Notes under the pieces: model-generated
What the model was told of the DNA's origin: nothing
The model's input: the letters and a program-made list of their open reading frames with translations, nothing else
The model's database searches: none
NCBI GenBank assembly: GCA_009783465.1
Contig: WRDM01000008.1
Location: 2,943 to 66,942 of the forward strand
Length of the DNA: 64,000 bases
Direction of reading: 5' to 3'
Source of the DNA: Phycisphaerae bacterium
GTDB lineage: Bacteria > Planctomycetota > Phycisphaerae > SM23-33
Part shown: positions 4,715 through 53,248 of the stretch, one piece after another
How the letters are laid out: every line of letters starts with the position of its first letter
How positions within the stretch are numbered: the first letter of the stretch is position 1
Position numbers and translations under genes: made by a program

Positions 4715-4838
4715 AAGTTTTTCCTCATGAAGACAATGATTGAGCGTATCCGAATCCGCTGGCGGTTTCAACCGGATTGCTGCGCTCGTCCAGGGCGAAC
4801 GCATATGCATTTCTCTTTCTCGCACGGGATCCGTGTGT

Positions 4839-4958
4839 CGGCGCGACTGGCCGCAGGCCCTGCCGTTTTACGCTGTAGATCGGTGTGTACGACGAAGCGT
4901 TCTGTCGCGCATCATGTTTTACAACGCAAAATGGCAGGGCCTGCGGCCAGTCGCGCCG
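4839..4958. repeat. H-family hairpin element, copy 1
   Basis: Arms CGGCGCGACTGGCCGCAGGCCCTGCCGTTTT / AAAATGGCAGGGCCTGCGGCCAGTCGCGCCG. The loop shares ACGAAGCGTTCTGTCGC with copy 2. Confidence 0.85.
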
Positions 4959-5241
4959 ACCGTGAAGGTCGCGCGAAAAGTCGGAAAGTGCCCGTGCGGT
5001 TTCCCACCGCCCTCGTCGGTTCCTGTCGTTCACTTTAGAAAAAAGGCGAAAAAAATTCCCGCGCCATTTGCCTGCCCGCCCATTGCATCGTACGTTCCCG
5101 TTTGAAAAGGAAATATCTGGCAGCGTGGCCCCTTGTGTTTGCAGGGTCGTGTGTCGTGTTCGCTGTCGGATGATGCCTGGTCGAACGCAACCCTGCGGTA
5201 ATCCATTGTGGTTACGGGGTAACTCTCTAGGAAGAGGAGGA

Positions 5242-7523: not shown

Positions 7524-8456
7524 TTATTTTTCGGGGCTGGCTTGGGTGAACAGTCGCGTTTGTCCGGCGTGGAGGGGCAGGGAGATCGCCCGGCCTGGAT
7601 GCACGACGGATTCGTCGGCTCGGAATTCGGCCATGGTCTGGTAGGCGGGCACGAGCGGGCGGTCGGTGGCCCAGTGCGTGCTTCGCAGGGCGGAGATGGC
7701 GGTGAGTTCGCCAGCTCCCGCGCCGCGGACGGCGGGCAGGCGTTGTTCACGAACGTCCGGCTGTGAGTGCAGATACGTGGCGGCGAAGATCGTCAGCCCC
7801 GCTGCCACGGCGACGGCGGCGGCCACACGCCACGCCGGCGCGCGGATCAGCAATGTGGCGGCCAACGCCAGCAGACCCAGCGACAATAGCGTGATCGCGT
7901 TGCGTTTCACGTCGGCAGGCCAGTGGGCTCGTTCGTAATCGGCTTGGATAAACTCGCGGCGGACGTGCTCGACTGGCCATTCGATGGTTGTCTCCGTTAC
8001 GGCGAGGGGGGCGGCGTGAGGCGACTCCTCGGGCAGCAGACTCACCGCGTACGGCTGTGTGTGCGAAAACGGAGGCAGCGGCAGATTCACGGTTTGCCGC
8101 GTACTCGCCGGCACGACGCACGGCCAATAAATGTTCGGCCCGCCTCCGGCGGGCGCCAACAACACCGCGCGAATCGTGTGCGCCGTCGTGTTGTGCACGG
8201 TGAGCGTGGCGGGGCGGAAAAACGTTTCCGTCGCCGCCGTCGAGTCCGCCGCCGGCGCGAGCGTAACGGTGACGGGATCGGCCGACGATTGCGCCGACGT
8301 GGATGCGGTGAGGGTCAACGCAATGCACAGGATGACAGTGTAGACAAACGATTCAACAATGGAAATGGTTGTCGGTATGTGTCGATCAAGCGGATTGTGT
8401 TTTCGTCTTGAAAACAACCGATTGGCCTCCCCGGCCTCGCGTTGGATGGCCGGCAC
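7524..8456 (-). CDS. hypothetical secreted/membrane protein
   Basis: Maximal ORF starting at GTG 8456. A TTG at 8417 would give a plausible signal peptide ('FSRRKH...ILCIALTLTASTSAQS'). C-terminal TM segment. Start uncertain. Confidence 0.5.
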   Translation of the reverse strand: MPAIQREAGEANRLFSRRKHNPLDRHIPTTISIVESFVYTVILCIALTLTASTSAQSSADPVTVTLAPAADSTAATETFFRPATLTVHNTTAHTIRAVLLAPAGGGPNIYWPCVVPASTRQTVNLPLPPFSHTQPYAVSLLPEESPHAAPLAVTETTIEWPVEHVRREFIQADYERAHWPADVKRNAITLLSLGLLALAATLLIRAPAWRVAAAVAVAAGLTIFAATYLHSQPDVREQRLPAVRGAGAGELTAISALRSTHWATDRPLVPAYQTMAEFRADESVVHPGRAISLPLHAGQTRLFTQASPEK

Positions 8457-8508
8457 ACTGTTTCCAACATCCTACATCGCAAAACGGCAAGCCATATCCA
8501 CATCGAAC
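8408..8508. repeat. fragments of the I-family (TTGAAAACAACCGAT...) and of the 34.4-kb palindrome arm
   Basis: Left half of the I hairpin, then 'CTACATCGCAAAACGGCAAGCCATAT', which is similar to the reverse complement of 34445-34475. Confidence 0.4.
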
Positions 8509-15883: not shown

Positions 15884-16284
15884 TGCGATTTGCGACGATC
15901 GTTTCCGCCCGCTTCGGCGAGGTGGAGTTGCCGCTGCCGATGTCGGCGCGGATTGGCCGGCGAAGCCAGGTGCTGCCGGCCGCCGGAGATGCCGACCGGT
16001 TTGTCCGCAGCGTGCAACTGGCCCCGGCGATGCTGACGGGCGAAGTGACGCTTCGCGGTATCGCCGCCGCGGAGGAGCTGGCGCTCGGGCAGTCGGGCGA
16101 ACTCTCGCTCACGCTGGGCGCGACGCAGGCGGGTCAGCCGCCACGAGTGGTCCGCCTGAGCGGGGCCGTCCTGCACGACATCGAACTGACGTACACGCAA
16201 CAGGGCATGGCGCAGGCGACACTGAAATTCGCCGCCCAGGCCGACGACGACTGCGAACCCTTTGTCGCCAACGACGACGAATAG
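15880..16284 (+). CDS. phage structural protein (small)
   Basis: ATGA start/stop overlap with the upstream gene indicates translational coupling. 134 aa. Confidence 0.5.
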   Translation: MMRFATIVSARFGEVELPLPMSARIGRRSQVLPAAGDADRFVRSVQLAPAMLTGEVTLRGIAAAEELALGQSGELSLTLGATQAGQPPRVVRLSGAVLHDIELTYTQQGMAQATLKFAAQADDDCEPFVANDDE

Positions 16285-16780: not shown

Positions 16781-16921
16781 GCGTCTGACGTGGCGAGGGC
16801 GTTTCGCCCTCGCGTCTCGCGGGCATCTTGCCCGCACCGGATAACGAAGTCGATTCGACGTTTTCCACTGACTAGGCCAATGGAGCACACAACGCGGGCG
16901 AGACGCCCGCGTCACGTGACG
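16781..16921. repeat. GC-rich palindromic element (GC-pal, CACGTGACGCGGGCG subtype), intergenic
   Basis: Three small hairpins: GGCGAGGGCG-TTT-CGCCCTCGC, GCGGGCA-TCT-TGCCCGC and GCGGGCG-AGA-CGCCCGC. Terminus CGTCACGTGAC. Confidence 0.75.
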
Positions 16922-22265: not shown

Positions 22266-23504
22266 CTACGGCGTTTCGAGGAGATTCTGCCAGCAGCACT
22301 TGGCCGTGACGTTGTGGCGGCGGCATATGTCCAGCAGTGGGGCGGTGATGGCGGATTGGGCGGTTGGCGGCAGTCGCCAGCTTCCGCCGCGGAAGGTCAG
22401 GCGTTCGGGCGGCTGGGATTCGTGGGCGATGGATTCGTAGAGGGTTCGCATGTGTCGCATCGTGGGCGAGAGCGGGCGGTTTCGCGGCTGGACGATTTTG
22501 GCCGTGGAATATACGACGTGACGGACGCCGACCTCTTTGGCGAACGCGACCAGCCGTTCCAGGTCGTCGAGCGTTTGCGGCCATTCTCGTGACGCGGGCG
22601 TCTCGCCCGCGTTGTGTGTTCCATGGGCTTGGCCGTTGAAAGACGAAAAATCTTTTTCATCGGCTGACGGCGAGGGCTGGAAGCCCTCGCGACACGCGGG
22701 CGAGACGCCCGCGTCACGTTTTTCGGCACGCGGGAACAGCGGGTCGATTCGCAGGACCACGTCCACGCCGGCCTGGCGGAGACGGCGGATGCCTGCAACG
22801 CGGTCTTCAACGCTCGGCGCGCCGGGATCATAGAGTTTCCTGGCCTCGTCACGCCAGAACGCCAGGCTGACCTCGAGGAGAAAACCAGGCCGTGGCGAGT
22901 TGTGTTTGGACGCGTGGAGTTTTCGGAACAGTTCGTCGCAGCCCAACTCCACGGCCAGGCGTGGATTTTTCGTCAGGACGACGACGCTCGTGAATCGGTT
23001 GCGATGGTCGAGGATCCGCCGCAGCGTCAGTCGCGTGTGGCCGGCGTCGGCTTCGAGCGGTTGAAACGCGTCGGTGCTGTTGGACAGATGAATCGGCGCG
23101 GGCGGGACGTTGAAGCGTTCCAGATCGGCGAGGTCCTTATCGAGCGACCGTGCGAAATCCCGCTTCACGCCCGCTTCGGACGGCTCGTATGCGGCGGCGT
23201 AACAGTACTCGCACGCGTGCGAACAGCCGGTGTAGACGTTGACGCAGTAGCGATGCCCGCTGGGAAAATACCGTTGGCTGGCGAACGGACAATACCACTT
23301 GACGACGCGAGGCCGCGTGGGGCAGAGCGTCGGCTTTTTCGATCCGTGCGGCAGAAAATACAACGCCATGGCCGCCTGCTCTCGCGGCGTTTTTTTTTGC
23401 CAGGCCGGCGCGTATTTTTCGTCGATCCGCCGAACCAGCGACAGGCCCTCATCGATGTGGGTTGAGTTGATTGAGAACAGGCTCAATCCGCCTCCTCCGG
23501 CCAC
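22266..23504 (-). CDS. radical SAM protein (COG1533 'DNA repair photolyase'/SplB-like) carrying an in-frame repeat insertion
   Basis: 'NVYTGCSHACEYCYA' is the CxxxCxxC cluster. The central ~44 aa are encoded by the palindromic element 22588..22718. Confidence 0.8.
   Translation of the reverse strand: MAGGGGLSLFSINSTHIDEGLSLVRRIDEKYAPAWQKKTPREQAAMALYFLPHGSKKPTLCPTRPRVVKWYCPFASQRYFPSGHRYCVNVYTGCSHACEYCYAAAYEPSEAGVKRDFARSLDKDLADLERFNVPPAPIHLSNSTDAFQPLEADAGHTRLTLRRILDHRNRFTSVVVLTKNPRLAVELGCDELFRKLHASKHNSPRPGFLLEVSLAFWRDEARKLYDPGAPSVEDRVAGIRRLRQAGVDVVLRIDPLFPRAEKRDAGVSPACREGFQPSPSADEKDFSSFNGQAHGTHNAGETPASREWPQTLDDLERLVAFAKEVGVRHVVYSTAKIVQPRNRPLSPTMRHMRTLYESIAHESQPPERLTFRGGSWRLPPTAQSAITAPLLDICRRHNVTAKCCWQNLLETP
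22588..22718. repeat. GC-pal element inserted in frame in the radical SAM gene
   Basis: Termini CGTGACGCGGGCGTCTCGCCCGCG / CGCGGGCGAGACGCCCGCGTCACG. Internal GGCGAGGGCTGGAAGCCCTCGC hairpin. Confidence 0.8.
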
Positions 23505-25924: not shown

Positions 25925-26105
25925 AACGTAGCACCGGGCGTCCCGCCCGTGAGTCGCATGGGCGTCTCGCCCATGCGACGCCCCAGCATGGGCGTCGTGG
26001 AGTTCGCGTGGGCGGTATAAGGGTTTCGCGTCACAAAATTTCAGCCAGCCGCTGCCACGGGCGAGACGCCCGTGGGACTCATGGGCGGGACGCCCATGCT
26101 ACGTT
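25925..26105. repeat. GC-pal element (GTAGCACGGGCG subtype), intergenic
   Basis: Arms of about 50 nt, each made of two CA(C/T)GGGCG-NNN-CGCCC(G/A)TG mini-palindromes. Termini AACGTAGCA / TGCTACGTT. Confidence 0.8.
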
Positions 26106-30430: not shown

Positions 30431-30748
30431 AAAGCCAGTAGCCAATAGCCAGTAGCCAATAGGTATGGAACGTCTCTGGTTATGAGGTAGTGTAAGCGGG
30501 AATGGTTACGCCTGTCGGGGTGGTTGAGTTTCCTGCACGACGAAAGCATCTGGTTTTGTGAGGAAAACAACCGATTATCCTCCCCGGTCTCGTACGGCAG
30601 TGCCGGTTCTTCCGCGCGAGACCGGGGAGATCAATCGGTTGTTTTCCACATCGAATCCGCACAGGCCAGCAACACGACAGTCACCACAAAATCATCCATC
30701 ATACCTGCTGGCTACTGGCTGGTGGCTATTGGCTTTGTTCCTTCGAAC
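30431..30748. repeat. HS-A hairpin with nested I-family hairpin (30562-30647)
   Basis: Arms 30431-30461 and 30701-30736. Inner hairpin GGAAAACAACCGATTATCCTCCCCGGTCTCG...CGAGACCGGGGAGATCAATCGGTTGTTTTCC. Confidence 0.8.
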
Positions 30749-32022: not shown

Positions 32023-34431
32023 ATGCCACAACACTACATCGACGCCATTCTGAAGTATCTCGCCGACCGCAGTTATCGCCCCGTCAAGCCGCGGCAGTTT
32101 GCGAGGCAGCTTGGCATTGACGACAACGAGTACGGCGCGTTTCGCGAGGCCGTCAAGCAGTTGCGTGACGAAGGCCGCGTCGTGCTCGGCGCCAACAACG
32201 CGCTGACGCTGCCGGAAATTTCCTCGCAAATCACGGGGTTTTACAGGCCGAATCCTCGCGGGTTCGGCTTCGTCATCCCGGAGACGCCCAACGCGCACGG
32301 GGATTTGTTCATTCCCGAAGGCTCCGCCGGCACGGCGATGGCGGGGGACCTGGTGGTCGCCCGCGTGTTTCATCAAGGCAAAAAAGCGGGCAAGGCCATG
32401 TATGCCGGCGAGATCATTCAGATCGTTCGTCGCGGGCGGAACCGCTTCGTGGGCACGATGGCGCGGGCCGACGACGGCACGTGGTTCGTCCTGCCCGACG
32501 GGGCGGCGATGACCCAGCCGATCGTCGTTCGCGACGTCTCCACCGCCAGCCCGAAGGCGGGCACGAAAGTCGTCGTCGAAATCACCGAGTATCCCAAGCC
32601 CGGCCGGCTGCCCATCGGCGTCATCGTCGAGCGGCTCGGCGAGGCCGGCGAACTTGACGTGGAAACGCGGGCCGTCATCCGCGCCCATGGTCTGTCGGAC
32701 GAATGGCCCGCCGCCGCGCTGACCGACGCCCGCGACGCCATCGCGGCGTTCGACCGTAGCACGGGCGTCTCGCCCGTGCCGTCTCGCGCCGCAAAGGAAA
32801 CGTCCGCTGTACGGACGGACCGCCACGGGCAAGATGCCCGTGCTACGGGTCGCGAGGACCTCACCGCGATGACCGTCGTCACGATCGATCCGCCCGACGC
32901 GCGGGATTACGACGACGCGATATCGATTCAGCCGGGGCCGGACGGCTCCGTTGTGCTGGGCGTGCACATCGCCGACGTGTCGCATTTCGTCCGCGAAGGC
33001 TCGGCGTTGGATCGCGAAGCCCGGCAGCGCGGCAACAGCACGTACTTCCCGCGACGCGTCGTGCCCATGCTGCCGGAAATTCTCTCCAACGGCGTGTGCA
33101 GTCTCCAGGCCGGCCAACGGCGATTCTGCAAGAGCGTGTTCATCCGTTACGACGACGAGGGCAACGTGCTCGGCACGCGATTCGCCGACAGCGTGATCCG
33201 CTCCGCCGGGAGGCTGACGTACATCGAGGCGCAGGGCATCATCGACCGTGGTGCGGGCATCTCACGTGACGCGGGCATCTTGCCCGCGTTGATCACGCCT
33301 GCGCCGTCAGCCAATGTTGACGGCAAATCCACGCACAACGCGGGCGAGACGCCCGCGTCACGTGAGACGCCACGGTCGGGCGGCTTCGCGCCTGGCGTCG
33401 CTGAACTCGTCCTTGCGATGAACGTGCTGGCGAAAACCATCGAAGCCCGTCGCCGCCGGGCCGGCATGCTGCACCTGGACCTGCCCGAAGTCGAACTGGT
33501 CTTCGACGAACAGGATCACGTCGTCGACGCGACGCCCCGCGACGATTCCTACACGCACACCGTCATCGAAATGTTCATGGTCGAAGCCAACGAAGCCGTC
33601 GCGACCCTGCTCGATCGGCTCGGCAGGCCTTGCGTGCGGCGAATCCACCCTCAGCCCGACGACGCCGGCGCCAAGCAGCTCCGCACGTTCGTGCACGCGT
33701 GCGGCCACAAGCTGCCGGGCAACCTCTCGCGGCGGGACATGCAGGAACTGCTCCGCGCCGTCCGCGGCAAGCCCGAAAGTTACGCGGTGAATCTGGCCCT
33801 GCTCAAAACGTTCGAGCAGGCGGTGTACAGTCCGATGACGGTCGGCCATTTTGCGCTGGCCAGCGAACATTACTGCCATTTCACGAGCCCGATCCGCCGC
33901 TACGCGGACCTGACGGTGCACCGCCTGCTGGGCGAGCACATTCGCGGCACGCTCGAAAGCAGGCCCGGCGAGGACAGGAGCGAACTGGTCCACCTCGGCG
34001 AAAATCTCACCGCGACGGAGCGCCGCAGCAAGGCGGCAGAGGATGAACTGCGCGAGGTGCTGATTCTCGAATTTCTCGCCACCAAAATCGGCGAGGATTT
34101 CGACGGCGTGGTGACGGGCGTGACGAGTTTCGGCCTGTTCGTGCAGTCGATGCGGTTCCTCATCGAGGGCCTGGTCCGGCTGGAGGATCTTGGCGACGAC
34201 TGGTGGGAAGTGGATCCGAAAACCGGCACGGTGGTCGGGGAGCGTACGCGGCGGAAGATACGGCTCGGCGACATGATGCGCGTCCGCATCGCCAGCGTGG
34301 ACATCGCCAAACGCCAACTCAACCTCTCGCCGACACGCGAGCGAAAGAGCGGACGGGTGACGAAAAAGGTGAAAAAACCAAACAAAAACAAGAAAACCTT
34401 CACATCTCGCAAGAAACGTCGAGGGCGGTGA
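32023..34431 (+). CDS. rnr: ribonuclease R with two in-frame repeat insertions
   Basis: 'YRPVKPRQFARQLG' N-terminus, RNB core 'TIDPPDARDYDDAISI' and 'HFALASEHYCHFTSPIRRYADL', S1 domain and a basic tail. Confidence 0.9.
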   Translation: MPQHYIDAILKYLADRSYRPVKPRQFARQLGIDDNEYGAFREAVKQLRDEGRVVLGANNALTLPEISSQITGFYRPNPRGFGFVIPETPNAHGDLFIPEGSAGTAMAGDLVVARVFHQGKKAGKAMYAGEIIQIVRRGRNRFVGTMARADDGTWFVLPDGAAMTQPIVVRDVSTASPKAGTKVVVEITEYPKPGRLPIGVIVERLGEAGELDVETRAVIRAHGLSDEWPAAALTDARDAIAAFDRSTGVSPVPSRAAKETSAVRTDRHGQDARATGREDLTAMTVVTIDPPDARDYDDAISIQPGPDGSVVLGVHIADVSHFVREGSALDREARQRGNSTYFPRRVVPMLPEILSNGVCSLQAGQRRFCKSVFIRYDDEGNVLGTRFADSVIRSAGRLTYIEAQGIIDRGAGISRDAGILPALITPAPSANVDGKSTHNAGETPASRETPRSGGFAPGVAELVLAMNVLAKTIEARRRRAGMLHLDLPEVELVFDEQDHVVDATPRDDSYTHTVIEMFMVEANEAVATLLDRLGRPCVRRIHPQPDDAGAKQLRTFVHACGHKLPGNLSRRDMQELLRAVRGKPESYAVNLALLKTFEQAVYSPMTVGHFALASEHYCHFTSPIRRYADLTVHRLLGEHIRGTLESRPGEDRSELVHLGENLTATERRSKAAEDELREVLILEFLATKIGEDFDGVVTGVTSFGLFVQSMRFLIEGLVRLEDLGDDWWEVDPKTGTVVGERTRRKIRLGDMMRVRIASVDIAKRQLNLSPTRERKSGRVTKKVKKPNKNKKTFTSRKKRRGR
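32756..32846. repeat. GC-pal element (GTAGCACGGGCG subtype) in frame in rnr
   Basis: GTAGCACGGGCGTCTCGCCCGTGC ... CCACGGGCAAGATGCCCGTGCTAC. Confidence 0.8.
33261..33366. repeat. GC-pal element (CACGTGACGCGGGC subtype) in frame in rnr
   Basis: CTCACGTGACGCGGGCATCTTGCCCGCGTT ... AACGCGGGCGAGACGCCCGCGTCACGTGAG. Confidence 0.8.
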
Positions 34432-34435
34432 GGAT

Positions 34436-34537
34436 GTGTAAATTTGGCTTGCCTCTTTGCGATGTAAGACGTTGTGGACTACAAAACGTTTGTAGTCCAC
34501 AACGTCTTACGGCGCAAAGAGGCAAGCCAAATTTACG
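34436..34537. repeat. ~100-bp near-perfect palindrome between convergent genes (probable bidirectional terminator)
   Basis: GTGTAAATTTGGCTTGCCTCTTTGCGATGTAAGACGTTGTGGACTACAAAACGTTTGTAGTCCACAACGTCTTACGGCGCAAAGAGGCAAGCCAAATTTACG. Confidence 0.8.
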
Positions 34538-45498: not shown

Positions 45499-45638
45499 CG
45501 TCGCATGGGCGTCCCGCCCATGAGTCCCACGGGCATCTTGCCCGTGGTGGCCTGTCTGGAGTACAAACGGTTCGTCTACAGGCTGGCGTTGCATGGGCGA
45601 GACGCCCATGCGACTCACGGGCAAGATGCCCGTGCTAC
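45499..45638. repeat. GC-pal element (GTAGCACGGGCG subtype), intergenic
   Basis: GCATGGGCGTCCCGCCCATGAGTCCCACGGGCATCTTGCCCGTGG ... GCATGGGCGAGACGCCCATGCGACTCACGGGCAAGATGCCCGTGCTAC. Confidence 0.8.
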
Positions 45639-45649
45639 GACGGAGCGAT

Positions 45650-46666
45650 ATGACGGAACTGAACATCCTGTTCACGTGCGCCGGGCGGCGTGTCGCCTTG
45701 ATGGAGACGTTTCGGCAGGCCTTGGCGGCGGTGGGGGCGCGCGGGAAACTATTGGCCGTCGATGCCACGGCCGCCTCGCCGGCATACCATAAAGCCGACG
45801 TCGGCCTGCTCGCGCCGCGCACGCGCGACGAGGCGTACATTCCCACGCTGCTGGAGTACGTGCGCCGCCATCGTGTCGCCCTGCTGGTGCCGATGACCGA
45901 TCTGGATCTGCTGCCGTTGGCGAGGCGGCGGGAGGAGTTCGCCCAGGCCGGCTGTACTGTGATGGTCGGCAGCGAATCCGCCGTGGCCGTCTGTTCGAGC
46001 AAGTCCGCCGTCAACGACGCCATCGCCCGCGCGGGGCTGGACACCGTGCACACGGCCGCGCTCGACGAATTTTTCGCCGCGCCGTTTTATCCGTGTTTCG
46101 CCAAGCCGACGCACGGCTCGGCCGGCGTGGGGGCCCTCCGCGTCGAGAACGAAAACCAACTCCGCCAGCACGTCGCGGCGCACGGGCGGGACCTGGTGGT
46201 GCAGGAATATCTCGACGGGCAGGAGTACACGATCGACGTCTACCGCAGCCGCGACGGCCTGGTGCGGAGCGTCGTGCCGCGGCAGCGGTTGCTGGTCCGT
46301 AGCGGCGAGGTGGAAAAAGGCGTGACGGTCCGCGACGACGGATTGATCGACGCCGGGCGGCGGCTTGGCGAAGCGGTCGAGGGGCTGTGGGGCGCCTTCT
46401 GCTGCCAGTGCCGCCGCGAGCGCGACGAGGGGCGCATCCGCTTTTTCGAAATCAATCCGCGGTTCGGCGGAGGCATGCCGCTGTCCATCGCCGCCGGCGC
46501 CAACCTGCCGCTCTACCTGTTACAGGAAGTCCTCGGCCTGCCCATCACCGCGCGACTGGGCGACTTCACCGACCGCCTCCTCATGCTCCGCTACGACGAG
46601 GCCGTGTACACGCAAGTGGATGACCCACGTGAATTGCCAGGATATGATAAGCCGCAGTTTCGATAG
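45650..46666 (+). CDS. ATP-grasp domain enzyme (polysaccharide-cluster type)
   Basis: ATG at 45650, downstream of the repeat. 'FAKPTHGSAGVG', 'VVQEYLDGQEYTIDV' and 'FFEINPRFGGG'. Confidence 0.7.
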   Translation: MTELNILFTCAGRRVALMETFRQALAAVGARGKLLAVDATAASPAYHKADVGLLAPRTRDEAYIPTLLEYVRRHRVALLVPMTDLDLLPLARRREEFAQAGCTVMVGSESAVAVCSSKSAVNDAIARAGLDTVHTAALDEFFAAPFYPCFAKPTHGSAGVGALRVENENQLRQHVAAHGRDLVVQEYLDGQEYTIDVYRSRDGLVRSVVPRQRLLVRSGEVEKGVTVRDDGLIDAGRRLGEAVEGLWGAFCCQCRRERDEGRIRFFEINPRFGGGMPLSIAAGANLPLYLLQEVLGLPITARLGDFTDRLLMLRYDEAVYTQVDDPRELPGYDKPQFR

Positions 46667-46750
46667 AAACGAGCCACAAGCGACAAGAGCAGGAGAAGCT
46701 TGTCTTTCAAAGCGTTCGCATGGAGCGAGAACATGAAATAAGACAAGACA

Positions 46751-47206
46751 GTAGCGTTGCAGGTGTGTCATTTCGACGTTGAAAACAAATCGAACGGCCT
46801 TCCCGGTCTCACGTGGAAGGGCCGGCGCACAGCCGCGAAGCGGCGTCGTGTATAGCCTAGGGCGAGCCGTACTCGGCGAGCCCTGGGGCAGGCATTGGGG
46901 CAGTTCGTTTATCGTGCCTGACGCCACTGGCCGAGGTCACACCGTCGCGCGAAGGCGGCCTCGAACGGCCCGCACGTTCCCCTGTGATGCCATTCGAAGC
47001 CGTACAGGCCCGCGTGCGCGGCCTCGGCCAGTGGCGTCAGGCACGATGTGGGAACAAAAATAGCTTGTCCCCAGGGCTCGCCGAGTACGGCTCGCCCTGG
47101 GCTATACACGACGCCGCTTCGCGGCTGTGCGCCGGCCCTTCCACGTCAGGCCGGGGAGGCCGCTCGATTTGTTTTCAACGTCGAAATGACACACCAGCAA
47201 CGCTAT
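46751..47206. repeat. ~456-bp multi-level palindrome (I-family termini)
   Basis: Arms of about 140 nt (46751-46890 and 47065-47206). Inner palindrome 46913-47045 (CGTGCCTGACGCCACTGGCCGAGG / CCTCGGCCAGTGGCGTCAGGCACG). Confidence 0.85.
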
Positions 47207-47276
47207 AGTCTTACAAAACGGACGCAGCTTGCGCTTGTCGCTGGTCAGTAACTGCCTAACCAAAGGATTTATAACA

Positions 47277-47687
47277 ATGTCCGACTGTATTTTCTGCAAC
47301 ATCGTGGCGGGGCGGATTCCGTGCGCGAAGCTTCTGGAGGATGACGCGGCGCTGGCGTTTATGGATATCGGCCCGCTGGCGCCGGGGCATGCGATGCTGA
47401 TTCCCAAGGGGCACTACGAAACCGTCGACCAGATCCCCGCCGACGAAGCCGCCGCCGTGTTGCGGCATTTGCCTGCCCTGGTCAAGGCGGTGCGGGCCGC
47501 TACCGGGGCCACCGGCGTGAACGTGCTGCAAAACAACGGTCGATCCGCCAACCAACTCGTGCCGCACGTCCATTTCCACATCATCCCCCGCCGCGAAGGC
47601 GACGCCTGGCACTTCAATTGGCCCGCCGGCAAATACGGACCCGGCGAGATGGACGACATGGCCAGGCGAATCCGTGAGGGCTTGTAA
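47277..47687 (+). CDS. HIT-family (histidine triad) hydrolase
   Basis: 'CIFCNIVAG' and 'HVHFHIIPR'. Confidence 0.85.
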   Translation: MSDCIFCNIVAGRIPCAKLLEDDAALAFMDIGPLAPGHAMLIPKGHYETVDQIPADEAAAVLRHLPALVKAVRAATGATGVNVLQNNGRSANQLVPHVHFHIIPRREGDAWHFNWPAGKYGPGEMDDMARRIREGL

Positions 47688-51129: not shown

Positions 51130-51292
51130 GTTTCCATGATCGTCATATTCCGGCGCCACTGGCCACAGGCCCTGCCATTTTGCGTTGCAGATCGTTGTGA
51201 CAGACGAAGCGTTCTGTCGCTCAACAACATTTTACAACGCAAAATGGCAGGGCCTGTGGCCAGTGGCGCCGGAATATGACGATCATGGAAAC
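51130..51292. repeat. H-family hairpin element, copy 2 (longer arms)
   Basis: GTTTCCATGATCGTCATATTCCGGCGCCACTGGCCACAGGCCCTGCCATTTTGCGTTG ... reverse complement. Confidence 0.85.
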
Positions 51293-51958: not shown

Positions 51959-53248
51959 ATGACCAACGCGCCCTGCAAACAAAATAGCGACGGACTTTCG
52001 TATCTTCCGCCAGGAGCATTATATCTCCATGTGCCGTTCTGTCTGGCCAAGTGTCGATATTGCGATTTTTATTCCCGTCCCATCCGCGCCGCCGACGCGG
52101 ACCGTTACACTGCCGCCGTTACGCGGCAGTTGCGACGGCTATGTAGCACGGGCGTCTCGCCCGTGAGTCGCATGGGCGTCCCGCCCATGCAAAACCAACC
52201 TGTCGGCGAAACGTGCGACCATGGCCAGATCGCTATGGGCGAGACGCCCGTGCTGCGGACGCCTCTGGCGACGGTGTTCCTCGGCGGCGGCACGCCGACG
52301 GCCCTTGGCGGGGAGCGGCTTGGGGACATTTTTCGCGCCGTCGCGCCGCTGTGCGACGCCCGCACGGAAATCTCCGTCGAAGCCAATCCCGGCGCGTTCG
52401 ACGGGCCGCTGGCGCGTCGGCTGATCGCGGCGGGCGTCAATCGCGTGAATATCGGCGTGCAGTCGTTTCAAGGCGACGAATTGGCCGTGCTGGGCCGTCT
52501 GCACGACGCCGCGGCGGCGAGGCACGCGGTGGCCCTCGCGAGGGACGCGGGGTTCGCGAATGTCGGCATCGACCTCATGTACGGCCTGCCGGGCCAAACG
52601 TTGGCGTCCTGGCGGGATTCGCTGCGGCAGGCGTTCGATCTGGGCGTGGAGCACCTCAGCGGCTACGCGTTGAGCATCGAGCCAGGCACGCCGCTGCACG
52701 CCGATTGGCAGGCCGGCGCGGTCGAGGAGATGGACGAAACCCTGCAACGTGAGATGTACTACGCGATGATCGAGCAGGCCGGCGGGGCGGGGTTGGCACA
52801 CTATGAAATGTCCAATTTCGCCAGGCCCGGTTTTGCGTGCCGACACAATCTGACGTACTGGCACAATTGGCCGTACCTTGGCCTTGGCCCGGCGGCGGCG
52901 AGTTACATGGCCGGCGTGCGTCGCACGAATCGCCCGGACGCCGACGCGTGGGCGACGGCGGTGCTGGCGGATCGGCCCCCGCCCGCGGACGAAGAGCGGC
53001 TGCCGCGGCATCTCCGCATGGCCGAGACGTTGATGCTAGGCCTTCGCCTGACGGCGGGCGTGGATCGGTCCGCCTTCGCGTCGCGTTTTGGCCTGGACGC
53101 ATTGGCCGCCTTCCCGCACTCCCTGCCACGCTACGCCGCGCAAGGCGCACTGCTCATCGAGGCCACGCACATCCGCCTGGCGAGTTGGGCGCTGTTCGGC
53201 GCGGACACGATTTTGGCGGATATCGTCGAGGAGGGGCGGCGAGAGTAG
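51959..53248 (+). CDS. hemW: radical SAM heme chaperone/coproporphyrinogen-oxidase-like protein with in-frame repeat insertion
   Basis: 'LYLHVPFCLAKCRYCDFYS', 'VFLGGGTPT' and 'NIGVQSF'. About 38 extra aa between the cluster and GGGTP are encoded by 52143..52256. Confidence 0.8.
   Translation: MTNAPCKQNSDGLSYLPPGALYLHVPFCLAKCRYCDFYSRPIRAADADRYTAAVTRQLRRLCSTGVSPVSRMGVPPMQNQPVGETCDHGQIAMGETPVLRTPLATVFLGGGTPTALGGERLGDIFRAVAPLCDARTEISVEANPGAFDGPLARRLIAAGVNRVNIGVQSFQGDELAVLGRLHDAAAARHAVALARDAGFANVGIDLMYGLPGQTLASWRDSLRQAFDLGVEHLSGYALSIEPGTPLHADWQAGAVEEMDETLQREMYYAMIEQAGGAGLAHYEMSNFARPGFACRHNLTYWHNWPYLGLGPAAASYMAGVRRTNRPDADAWATAVLADRPPPADEERLPRHLRMAETLMLGLRLTAGVDRSAFASRFGLDALAAFPHSLPRYAAQGALLIEATHIRLASWALFGADTILADIVEEGRRE
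52143..52256. repeat. GC-pal element (GTAGCACGGGCG subtype) in frame in the hemW-like gene
   Basis: GTAGCACGGGCGTCTCGCCCGTGAGTCGCATGGGCGTCCCGCCCATGC ... TATGGGCGAGACGCCCGTGCTGC. Confidence 0.8.

Follow-up and report, generated by a model that had tools for sequence, protein, structure and literature searches.

A previously undescribed family of long intergenic palindromes with layered hairpins in a planctomycete-bearing microbial community

What kind of element fills the gap between two ordinary genes with a palindrome of several hundred base pairs? We address this question for a 64,000-nucleotide stretch of contig WRDM01000008.1 from a Phycisphaerae bacterium (the window; coordinates without a contig name refer to it), where a 468-bp palindrome at 46745-47212 separates an ATP-grasp gene (45593-46666, +) from a HIT-family gene (47277-47687, +), both of them recognised by Pfam and called as genes on the source contig. 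The palindrome belongs to an intergenic family that is previously undescribed, as is its layered hairpin architecture, and in which palindromy is kept at two levels through compensatory change. We read it, with a probability of about 0.6, as one copy of a multicopy set of giant mosaic palindromic repeats of the REPIN/BIME kind, gained by insertion and probably acting as a transcript-level hairpin—a putative terminator, insulator, or 3′-end protection.

The palindrome and its family

An inverted-repeat search places the main arms at 46745-46888 and 47069-47212: 144 nt each, 94% complementary with mismatches at 8 of 144 positions, and separated by 180 nt. They form the longest local inverted repeat of the window. 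The original prediction, made from the letters of this DNA, had set slightly narrower arms (46751-46890 / 47065-47206) and a second palindrome between them (46913-46937 / 47021-47045); the latter proves to be the well-paired base of an inner palindrome with 59-nt arms (46911-46969 / 46989-47047; 76% complementary). The description of the whole as a composite, multi-level palindrome thus stands. Folded as RNA, each strand forms one nearly continuous hairpin, at −418.4 kcal/mol for the + strand and −418.1 for the − strand, against −195 ± 6.4 for shuffles (z = −35 and −33, respectively). The "I-family" motif noticed earlier at the outer arm ends is real and recurring: the corresponding I-stem pattern, GAAAACAANNCGANNNNCCTYCCCGGTCTC, matches at 46781, 47147(−), and 30562, where zero matches are expected in the window.

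Two mirror-image open reading frames (ORFs) lie within the palindrome, at 46779..47063(+) and 46909..47109(−). They had been regarded as artefacts from the outset, and the evidence agrees: neither is called as a gene in the source assembly, neither has a Pfam match, and a three-frame translation of the + strand finds no homolog in a collection of 5.8 billion proteins, a search that would also catch spurious ORFs on sister copies. The + strand frames suffice because the palindrome makes the − strand frames nearly equal.

Copies of the arms occur elsewhere, both in the window and in the same community. The window contig derives from a short-read MEGAHIT metagenome assembly (ENA ERZ27257304, k141_2390043, 85 kb), and the sister copies, designated here by L numbers, lie on JGI metagenome contigs produced by a different assembly pipeline. 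A degenerate pattern built from the window copies hit 20 loci among the JGI contigs; 17 were real, and 16 of these 17 came from one sample, Ga0123353. Contigs L035 (ERZ27257304) and L036 (JGI 3300010167, Ga0123353) have a 9.1-kb stretch in common at 99.98% identity, from which it follows that the sister copies stem from the window's own microbial community or a near-identical one. Among 185,579 representative genomes, by comparison, the I-stem pattern gave only two chance matches, both within coding sequence. The family is probably carried by uncultured, Phycisphaerae-type planctomycetes, an assignment taken from the names of homologs at ~61% identity; the nearest relative of the window's ATP-grasp protein is 69% identical. 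We found no description of such elements in the literature on Planctomycetes or Phycisphaerae.

Each arm is a unit of ~145 nt that runs from a first hairpin (P1) through GCTA and a short linker to GACG, a second hairpin (P2), an I-stem half, and a tail. The P1 consensus is CCCAGGGyTCGCGGAGTACCGCTCrCCCTGGG and that of P2 is GCCGCTTCGCGGC, with TGTGTGCCGGC..CGCGAGACCGGGGAGGCCnnTCGGTTGTTTTC following P2 and preceding the tail. Two units, placed head-to-head with P1 facing inwards, enclose a separate central hairpin module, and short inverted heptad arrays usually border the block on both sides. R1, a covariance model built from the unit core, recovers 35 units at E below 1e-14 on 16 community contigs and the window, scoring 118.5 bits at 46779-46886(−) and 119.1 bits at 47071-47178(+) in the window element. 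Fourteen complete inverted pairs are present (window, L010, L013, L014, L015, L016, L019, L020b, L021, L022, L023, L025, L026, and L027), together with a short pair having a single P1 in common at the apex (L008), a pair with one degenerate arm (L018), and solo or truncated units (L009, L012, L016b, and L020a). A solo partial unit (L035:5573-5667; P2, I-stem half, and tail; R1 35 bits) directly follows echF. Within the window, 30558-30651 is a reduced copy in which a plain I-stem hairpin (42-nt arms) is flanked on either side by AGCCAAT heptad arrays, and 8408-8497 is a partnerless half-unit (I-stem half plus GTGTGCCGGC). The remainder of the source contig is, by its gene list, a ribosomal-protein operon, and R1 found no further copy there.

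The family varies in composition around this plan. Doublets measure ~420-500 bp (~470 nt for the window copy). Twelve complete elements keep the central module, whose 13 basal pairs hardly vary; L010 and L022 have a different centre. There are two tail types, that of the window copy being common to L012, L014, L015, L019, L023, L025, and L027, and the heptad units vary by locus. The basal stem of the central module recurs in stand-alone hairpins at 4830-4965 and 51130-51292 (41-69-nt arms; basal stem GGCGCSACTGGCC..AGGCC), whose inner parts are unlike the element's centre; the element is thus mosaic, built of modules also found on their own. A candidate 20-nt match between the element's centre and the hairpins near 4840 and 51152 failed, alignment showing the basal stem alone to be common. 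Arms resemble each other more within one element (0.84) than between elements (0.755), and 11 of 28 are closest to their own partner.

Pairing kept at two levels

The long stem and the small hairpins each carry a record of compensatory substitution. For the long stem, we aligned 12 complete elements (alignment A4) and derived the structure by RNAalifold, which returned a single long hairpin of 116 pairs with 93% of cells occupied by standard pairs. Pairs changed on both sides numbered 37, against 20.7 ± 2.8 in shuffles, and covariation reached 0.213 against 0.115 when shuffled (attained by 0 of 500 shuffles) and ~0.04 with slid partners. The clearest cases lie in the linker between P2 and P1 (e.g., UA:8 / GC:3 and AU:6 / GC:4 / UA:1), a segment incapable of local pairing. 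At the local level, P1 and P2 across 35 units are 96.9% paired and hold 36 double-change cells against 10.5 when shuffled, in an alignment that was fitted to the model. In four elements (L015, L020b, L022, and L023), the P1 variants of the two arms differ, and each is compensated within the arm that carries it although arm-to-arm pairing is thereby disrupted, so that the small hairpins are important by themselves. Since the sequences are related copies, shuffle statistics overstate significance, and more weight rests on the slid controls and on the local compensation, which is independent.

Conservation also extends beyond pairing: the letters of the centre's 13-bp basal stem, CGCCACTGGCC, do not vary, the unpaired linkers hold invariant nucleotides, and the asymmetric apex loop is conserved.

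An Rfam scan, which had been proposed along with the original prediction, was informative. The inner 57 nt of each arm match RF01687 (Acido-Lenti-1; Rfam type "Gene; sRNA", for small RNA) at 34.0 bits in the right arm and 28.9 bits in the left. Both scores fall below the gathering score of 37 bits because of a 14-nt insertion in the P1 loop; the sister copy at L018:1508-1563 exceeds it with 38.2 bits, and other copies score 30.7-30.8. Both hairpins and the conserved GGCUA-containing linker are present, and compensatory pairs occur in both stems over the 35 units (P1, UA:21 / CG:13 and GC:27 / CG:6; P2, GC:23 / CG:12). Matches of the palindrome to snaR-A and to microRNA families in Rfam were set aside as generic long-hairpin matches, far under their thresholds.

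The correspondence with Acido-Lenti-1 covers the succession of P1 hairpin, GGCUA, ~10-nt linker, CG, P2 hairpin, and CU, and both are multicopy. The units described here differ in a 12-14-nt extension of P1, in that the motif makes up only the 5′ third of the 145-nt unit, and in forming inverted pairs around a further hairpin, whereas Rfam lists a stand-alone small RNA whose function is not known. The two main Acido-Lenti-1 genome accessions are taken by us to be those of Lentisphaera araneosa and Koribacter versatilis, and NC_005027, the source of two seed sequences, belongs to the planctomycete Rhodopirellula baltica. Weinberg et al. 2010 (PMC2864571) reported 89 copies of the motif, most in two genome accessions and at times close to group II introns, and gave no function. 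By our own reading of its coordinates, the seed alignment (PMC2864571, supplement 5) holds tandem arrays and head-to-head pairs, e.g., NZ_ABCK01000016.1 15957-15912 / 16051-16096 and wf3_AHAI13594_y1 575-530 / 682-727. The evidence here points instead to a repeat-element module; we place the element, whose arm core is Acido-Lenti-1-like, in no named family. Features of the window copy are collected in Table 1.

Table 1. Features of the palindrome at 46745-47212 and its flanks, in window coordinates
Feature	Position	Strand	Remarks
Left flanking heptads (GCCACAA GCGACAA G...)	46673..46691		Begins 7 nt past the ATP-grasp stop codon; partner 47230-47245
Left tail, reverse complement of the unit's 3′ tail, with ..GACAGTAGCGTTGCAGGTGTG..	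46745..46778	−	Pairs with 47179-47212
Left I-stem half (GTTGAAAACAAATCGAACGGCCTTCCCGGTCTCACG...) and GCCGGCGCACA linker	46779..46831	−	Pairs with 47126-47178; arm-to-arm covariation
Left-unit P2 hairpin (GCCGCGAAGCGGC, then GTC, giving the CGTC tag)	46832..46844	−	Rfam alignment; covariation, fourth pair GC:23 / CG:12
Left-unit P1 hairpin (CCTAGGGCGAGCCGTACTCGGCGAGCCCTGGG), TATAG tag before it	46856..46887	−	RF01687 alignment; P1 covariation
Left Acido-Lenti-1-like motif (P1 + P2)	46831-46887	−	RF01687 28.9 bits, E=1.2e-4
Left spacer, T-containing run (GTTCGTTTAT) inward of P1	46889..46910		Terminator-like site 46880-46901 + AGTTCGTTTA
Central hairpin module	46911..47047		Basal stem CTGACGCCACTGGCCG / CGGCCAGTGGCGTCAG, inner stems, asymmetric apex GCACGTTCCCCTGTG (~46975-46989)
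Right spacer, A-rich on the + strand, i.e., T-rich on the − strand (CTATTTTTGTT)	47048..47068		Sequence
Right Acido-Lenti-1-like motif	47070..47126	+	P1 47070-47101, GGCTA linker, P2 47113-47125; RF01687 34.0 bits, E=5.3e-6
Right I-stem half (..CGTCAGGCCGGGGAGGCCGCTCGATTTGTTTTCAAC)	47126..47178	+	Pattern, R1 match, arm-to-arm covariation
Right tail with outward promoter-like TCGAAA-N17-TATAGT	47179..47212	+	Site 47181-47209, 9/12 matches; 65 nt before the HIT start codon
Right flanking heptads (CTTGCGC TTGTCGC TGG)	47230..47245		Inverted partner of 46676-46691

Genomic setting and candidate explanations

All copies are intergenic, mostly 0-150 nt past a stop codon and mostly between co-directional genes. 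Their neighbours are ordinary or housekeeping genes, among them Ech hydrogenase subunits, phosphofructokinase, phosphoglycerate mutase, MiaA, an aldo-keto reductase, RNase E/G, and PTS EIIA. The L010 copy sits inside an Ech hydrogenase operon, between echC (stop 10355) and echD (start ~10815), where CGAAATY heptad arrays and the palindrome fill a gap of ~455 bp. The same gap measures 8 bp in L035 and L036, 4 bp in L039 and L040, and 144 bp in L037 (3429-3573), where an inverted AGCGACA-type heptad pair surrounds a ~70-nt non-palindromic core and looks like an "outer layer" without the inner palindrome. The relatives compared have EchE proteins 79-83% identical, and the operons may be paralogous. 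The junction shows the clean presence/absence difference that the original prediction had suggested seeking among relatives, and these comparisons of sequence indicate that the element is gained and lost at intergenic sites, operons included. Downstream of the ATP-grasp gene, relatives (nearest 69% identity) have gaps of 8-80 bp and no palindrome; we rejected these loci as a clean empty site since the next gene differs there.

Among known elements, REP sequences of proteobacteria and their REPIN and BIME assemblies (Bertels & Rainey 2011, PMC3116915; Di Nocera et al. 2013, PMC3733652) offer the closest set of parallels: extragenic, multicopy, small hairpins tagged with GTAG or CGTC; head-to-head doublets foldable into one long hairpin; singlet remnants; mosaics with other motifs; nesting in larger palindromes; compensatory hairpin change; and a preference for gaps between co-directional or convergent genes. 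REP dimers nested inside larger palindromes, with GTAG and CGTC tags, have been described (PMC3733652), and the same paper reports that Koribacter encodes Y1 transposases ("TIRYTs") linked to terminal inverted repeats. In the present family, the GGGCTA(C/T/A) that comes after P1 corresponds to nTAGCCC on the opposite strand, GACG (CGTC on the opposite strand) precedes P2 in nearly all units, and CTGTAGC is present in tails. REPIN-type doublets are represented by the 14 complete pairs alongside solo and truncated units, with covariation along the long hairpin. The family differs in having two different tagged hairpins per unit, a conserved central module, and a host from another phylum.

Other repeat classes resemble the element in part. 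ERIC/IRU, Correia (CREE/NEMIS), RUP, and BOX elements are also intergenic, co-transcribed, imperfect palindromes, akin to miniature inverted-repeat transposable elements (MITEs), with size variants produced via internal insertions. Repeats of these families affect mRNA stability or processing—RNase III cuts Correia hairpins—and some carry outward promoters. Their terminal repeats are defined, and Correia elements are further marked by a TA target duplication and an IHF site. These terminal repeats, the TA duplication, and the IHF site are not seen here, and the present element, which is internally modular, is 2-4x longer than such elements of 100-200 bp. A bidirectional intrinsic terminator provides a further parallel: the signal is readable both ways, a T-rich run comes after a GC-rich hairpin, either P1 or an alternative one, and the element lies just past stop codons.

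How such an element might act can be outlined from its layout. It would be transcribed within neighbouring mRNAs; from either side, polymerase would meet P2, then P1, then a T-rich run, and could pause or terminate there, leaving a hairpin-protected 3′ end. On read-through, the arms would zip into a hairpin stem of ~230 bp that may separate or process the flanking cistrons, and the outward promoter-like tail could restart transcription. The stretch inward of P1 includes a T-rich run in 25 of the 35 units, compared with 11% of background windows. Terminator-like consensus matches fall there, at P1's inner edge, in four elements (the window copy, L015, L019, and L023, the last on both strands), with per-region counts near chance, and a TCGAAw-N17-TAyAGT layout recurs, by inspection, in type-A tails. 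Spread would depend on an enzyme encoded elsewhere in the genome, the prime candidate being a RAYT-type HUH/Y1 transposase whose substrate would be single-stranded hairpins.

Several observations weigh against this repeat-element reading or its transcript-level part. The T-run starts 8-14 nt past P1, which is not the arrangement of a textbook intrinsic terminator, whose U-tract begins within 0-2 nt of a GC-rich hairpin; the element is also far larger than one. A textbook bidirectional terminator exists separately in the community (L035 5690-5740, AAAAAAGAACGTCA...TGACGTTCTTTTTT), following the solo partial unit, and the copy within the Ech operon argues against full termination. Sense-strand G.U against A.C cells stand at 50:36 (p=0.16), so that no strand signal emerges, and the apex is oriented 9:3 relative to genes; an RNA-level role is therefore putative. 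Relative to REP and REPIN sequences, the unit is 145 nt against 20-40 and the doublet ~470 nt against ~100, 4-5x any described, and only 5 of 17 right-arm units carry an exact GTAG tag. Copies diverge from one another by 15-25%, with no sign of a recent burst. As to mobility, a Pfam scan of 20 genes flanking 13 copies found no transposase, RAYT, TnpB, reverse transcriptase, or DDE transposase, Pfam likewise identifies no transposase in the gene on either side of the window copy, and comparison of the flanks of 16 copies revealed no consistent target-site duplication or excision footprint. Those flanks often run on as further inverted repeats or heptads.

The original prediction had offered a structured noncoding RNA or a composite MITE, and both have evidence on their side. 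A structured RNA gene—a convergent or divergent pair of small RNA genes, or one long functional RNA—would account for the RF01687 match with its small RNA type, for the strong covariation in P1, P2, and the long stem, and for the invariant nucleotides of the unpaired linkers and the conserved asymmetric apex loop. We nevertheless hold it to be unlikely: many copies occur per community, some of them truncated, solo, or reduced; folding is equally strong on the two strands, no G.U bias appears, and the apex orientation is not fixed; a consistent promoter upstream of the unit is absent, as is a terminator in the unit's own orientation; and copies wedged 0-150 nt behind stop codons, and in an operon, follow the pattern of repeat elements. 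The idea of a single discrete RNA gene in particular does not fit the occurrence of copies in both orientations to their flanking genes. A classical MITE, i.e., a deletion derivative of an insertion sequence (IS) moved by a DDE transposase that recognises the tails or heptad arrays, would agree with the inverted termini and their conserved ..GAGACTGTAGC.. end, the multiple copies, the insertion polymorphism at echC-echD, and the outward promoter-like tail, as found in some IS elements. Its chances appear equally slim, because a consistent target-site duplication is absent from the 16 copies, because the palindromy spans the whole element and the internal hairpins are selected, neither of which an end-recognising transposase needs, and because the termini vary between two tail types and between loci in their heptads. 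Nor is the strict form of this proposal supported: none of the 20 genes scanned beside 13 copies is a transposase, and no related autonomous or coding element was found in plasmids or phages (blastn), viral contigs, or the protein database. The viral contigs gave 0 matches to the I-stem pattern and 4 to the centre pattern, none of them matched by R1 or accompanied by an inverted partner nearby, which we read as chance.

The element might instead act as DNA, through a cruciform or hairpin recognised by a host protein such as gyrase, a nucleoid protein, or a recombinase, or as an obstacle to replication or recombination, its transcript having no role. Perfect strand symmetry with no strand-specific substitution bias, the AT-rich spacers beside the centre, and the sequence-invariant 13-bp basal stem, which suggests sequence-specific recognition, all speak for this; protein binding and gyrase-type roles have been proposed for BIMEs. 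That P1 and P2 are compensated within one arm even where arm-to-arm pairing breaks indicates single-stranded folding, the placement is tied to gene ends, and we know of no protein that binds the palindrome. These points weaken a DNA role rather than oppose it outright, as single-stranded DNA in replication would equally explain local hairpins, and we consider it improbable. An assembly fold-back is a natural suspicion for a short-read MEGAHIT k141 assembly, since chimeric reads in a metagenome can yield palindromes. A fold-back would give identical arms, whereas 8 of 144 positions are mismatched here, the asymmetric centre has been conserved, and 13 further complete JGI copies show the same architecture with compensatory differences; given the arm mismatches and the complete copies from another pipeline, we set this worry aside as having a negligible chance of being correct. 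Somewhat more room is left for a bolder extension of the repeat-element reading, which we regard as tentative and on balance doubtful. It would have "Russian-doll" nested hairpin modules that propagate themselves with a dedicated enzyme of their own, a new class of bacterial mobile or structural DNA in which near-perfect palindromes of ~470 bp are stable in vivo. From the outside in, the layers would be heptad arrays, I-stem, Acido-Lenti-1 hairpins, and central hairpin, and as part of the same doubtful proposal the modules may insert into, or grow from, one another's apex.

Surrounding repeats and significance

The flanking GCGACAA-type heptads of the original prediction are present, as the pair ACAAGCGACAAGAGCA (46676-46691) / TGCGCTTGTCGCTGGT (47230-47245). 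At 16 nt and 88% complementarity this pair is short and, taken alone, could be chance; it matches a habit of inverted heptads throughout the window. Nearly every intergenic region there is bracketed by inverted short tandem arrays with 3-5 copies of a 7- or 8-nt unit that varies by locus (AGCCACA, AGCCAAT, AGGCTGT, GTTAACTN, TTTCGAA, CTGTTAGC), and the pattern GCCANNAGCCANNAGCCA matches 37 times against 0 expected. Array pairs lie at 1-27/133-158, 4047-4077/4176-4191, 13939-13968/14065-14094, 16289-16324/16368-16390, 19302-19336/19343-19375, 21115-21147/21312-21342, 29494-29523/29780-29806, 30433-30462/30708-30734, 31074-31096/31274-31295, 38656-38689/38705-38739, 42586-42612/42677-42711, 47707-47727/47866-47892, and 49220-49242/49413-49439. 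Relatives carry arrays of other units (L004, L010, and L037). To our knowledge, such bracketing of intergenic regions by inverted heptad arrays has no description.

Another family of paired small hairpins, of the CACGGGCGAGACGCCCGTG / CATGGGCGTCCCGCCCATG types (repeat families D6, D8, D15, D16, and D19), occurs at 16789-16919, 22585-22730, 25933-26103, 33256-33371, 45499-45640, and 52142-52214. One copy, 45592-45639, overlaps the first codons of the ATP-grasp gene (MGETPMRLTGKMPVL...), whose homologs are 331-345 aa long against 357 here; given this overlap and the shorter homologs, the true start codon is probably further downstream. Separately, an AT-richer and almost perfect palindrome lies at 34438-34536 (arms of 48 nt at 96% complementarity, loop of 3 nt); it is unrelated in sequence to the 468-bp palindrome and draws spurious plant microRNA matches from Rfam.

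For Acido-Lenti-1, a small RNA of unknown function since 2010, these results give an orphan Rfam family a biological context: Here the motif behaves as the core module of a repeat element, which suggests re-examining RF01687 as REP-like DNA. The "Russian-doll" proposal, if true, would give this orphan motif a biological role. In Escherichia coli, SbcCD-dependent inviability of palindromes is well established, and instability would be expected of near-perfect palindromes several hundred base pairs long. A lineage in which many long palindromes are maintained by compensatory change, even in operons, is a natural system for studying palindrome tolerance and function. Together, the palindromes and the inverted heptad arrays point to an unusual and undescribed organisation of intergenic DNA in a poorly studied phylum.

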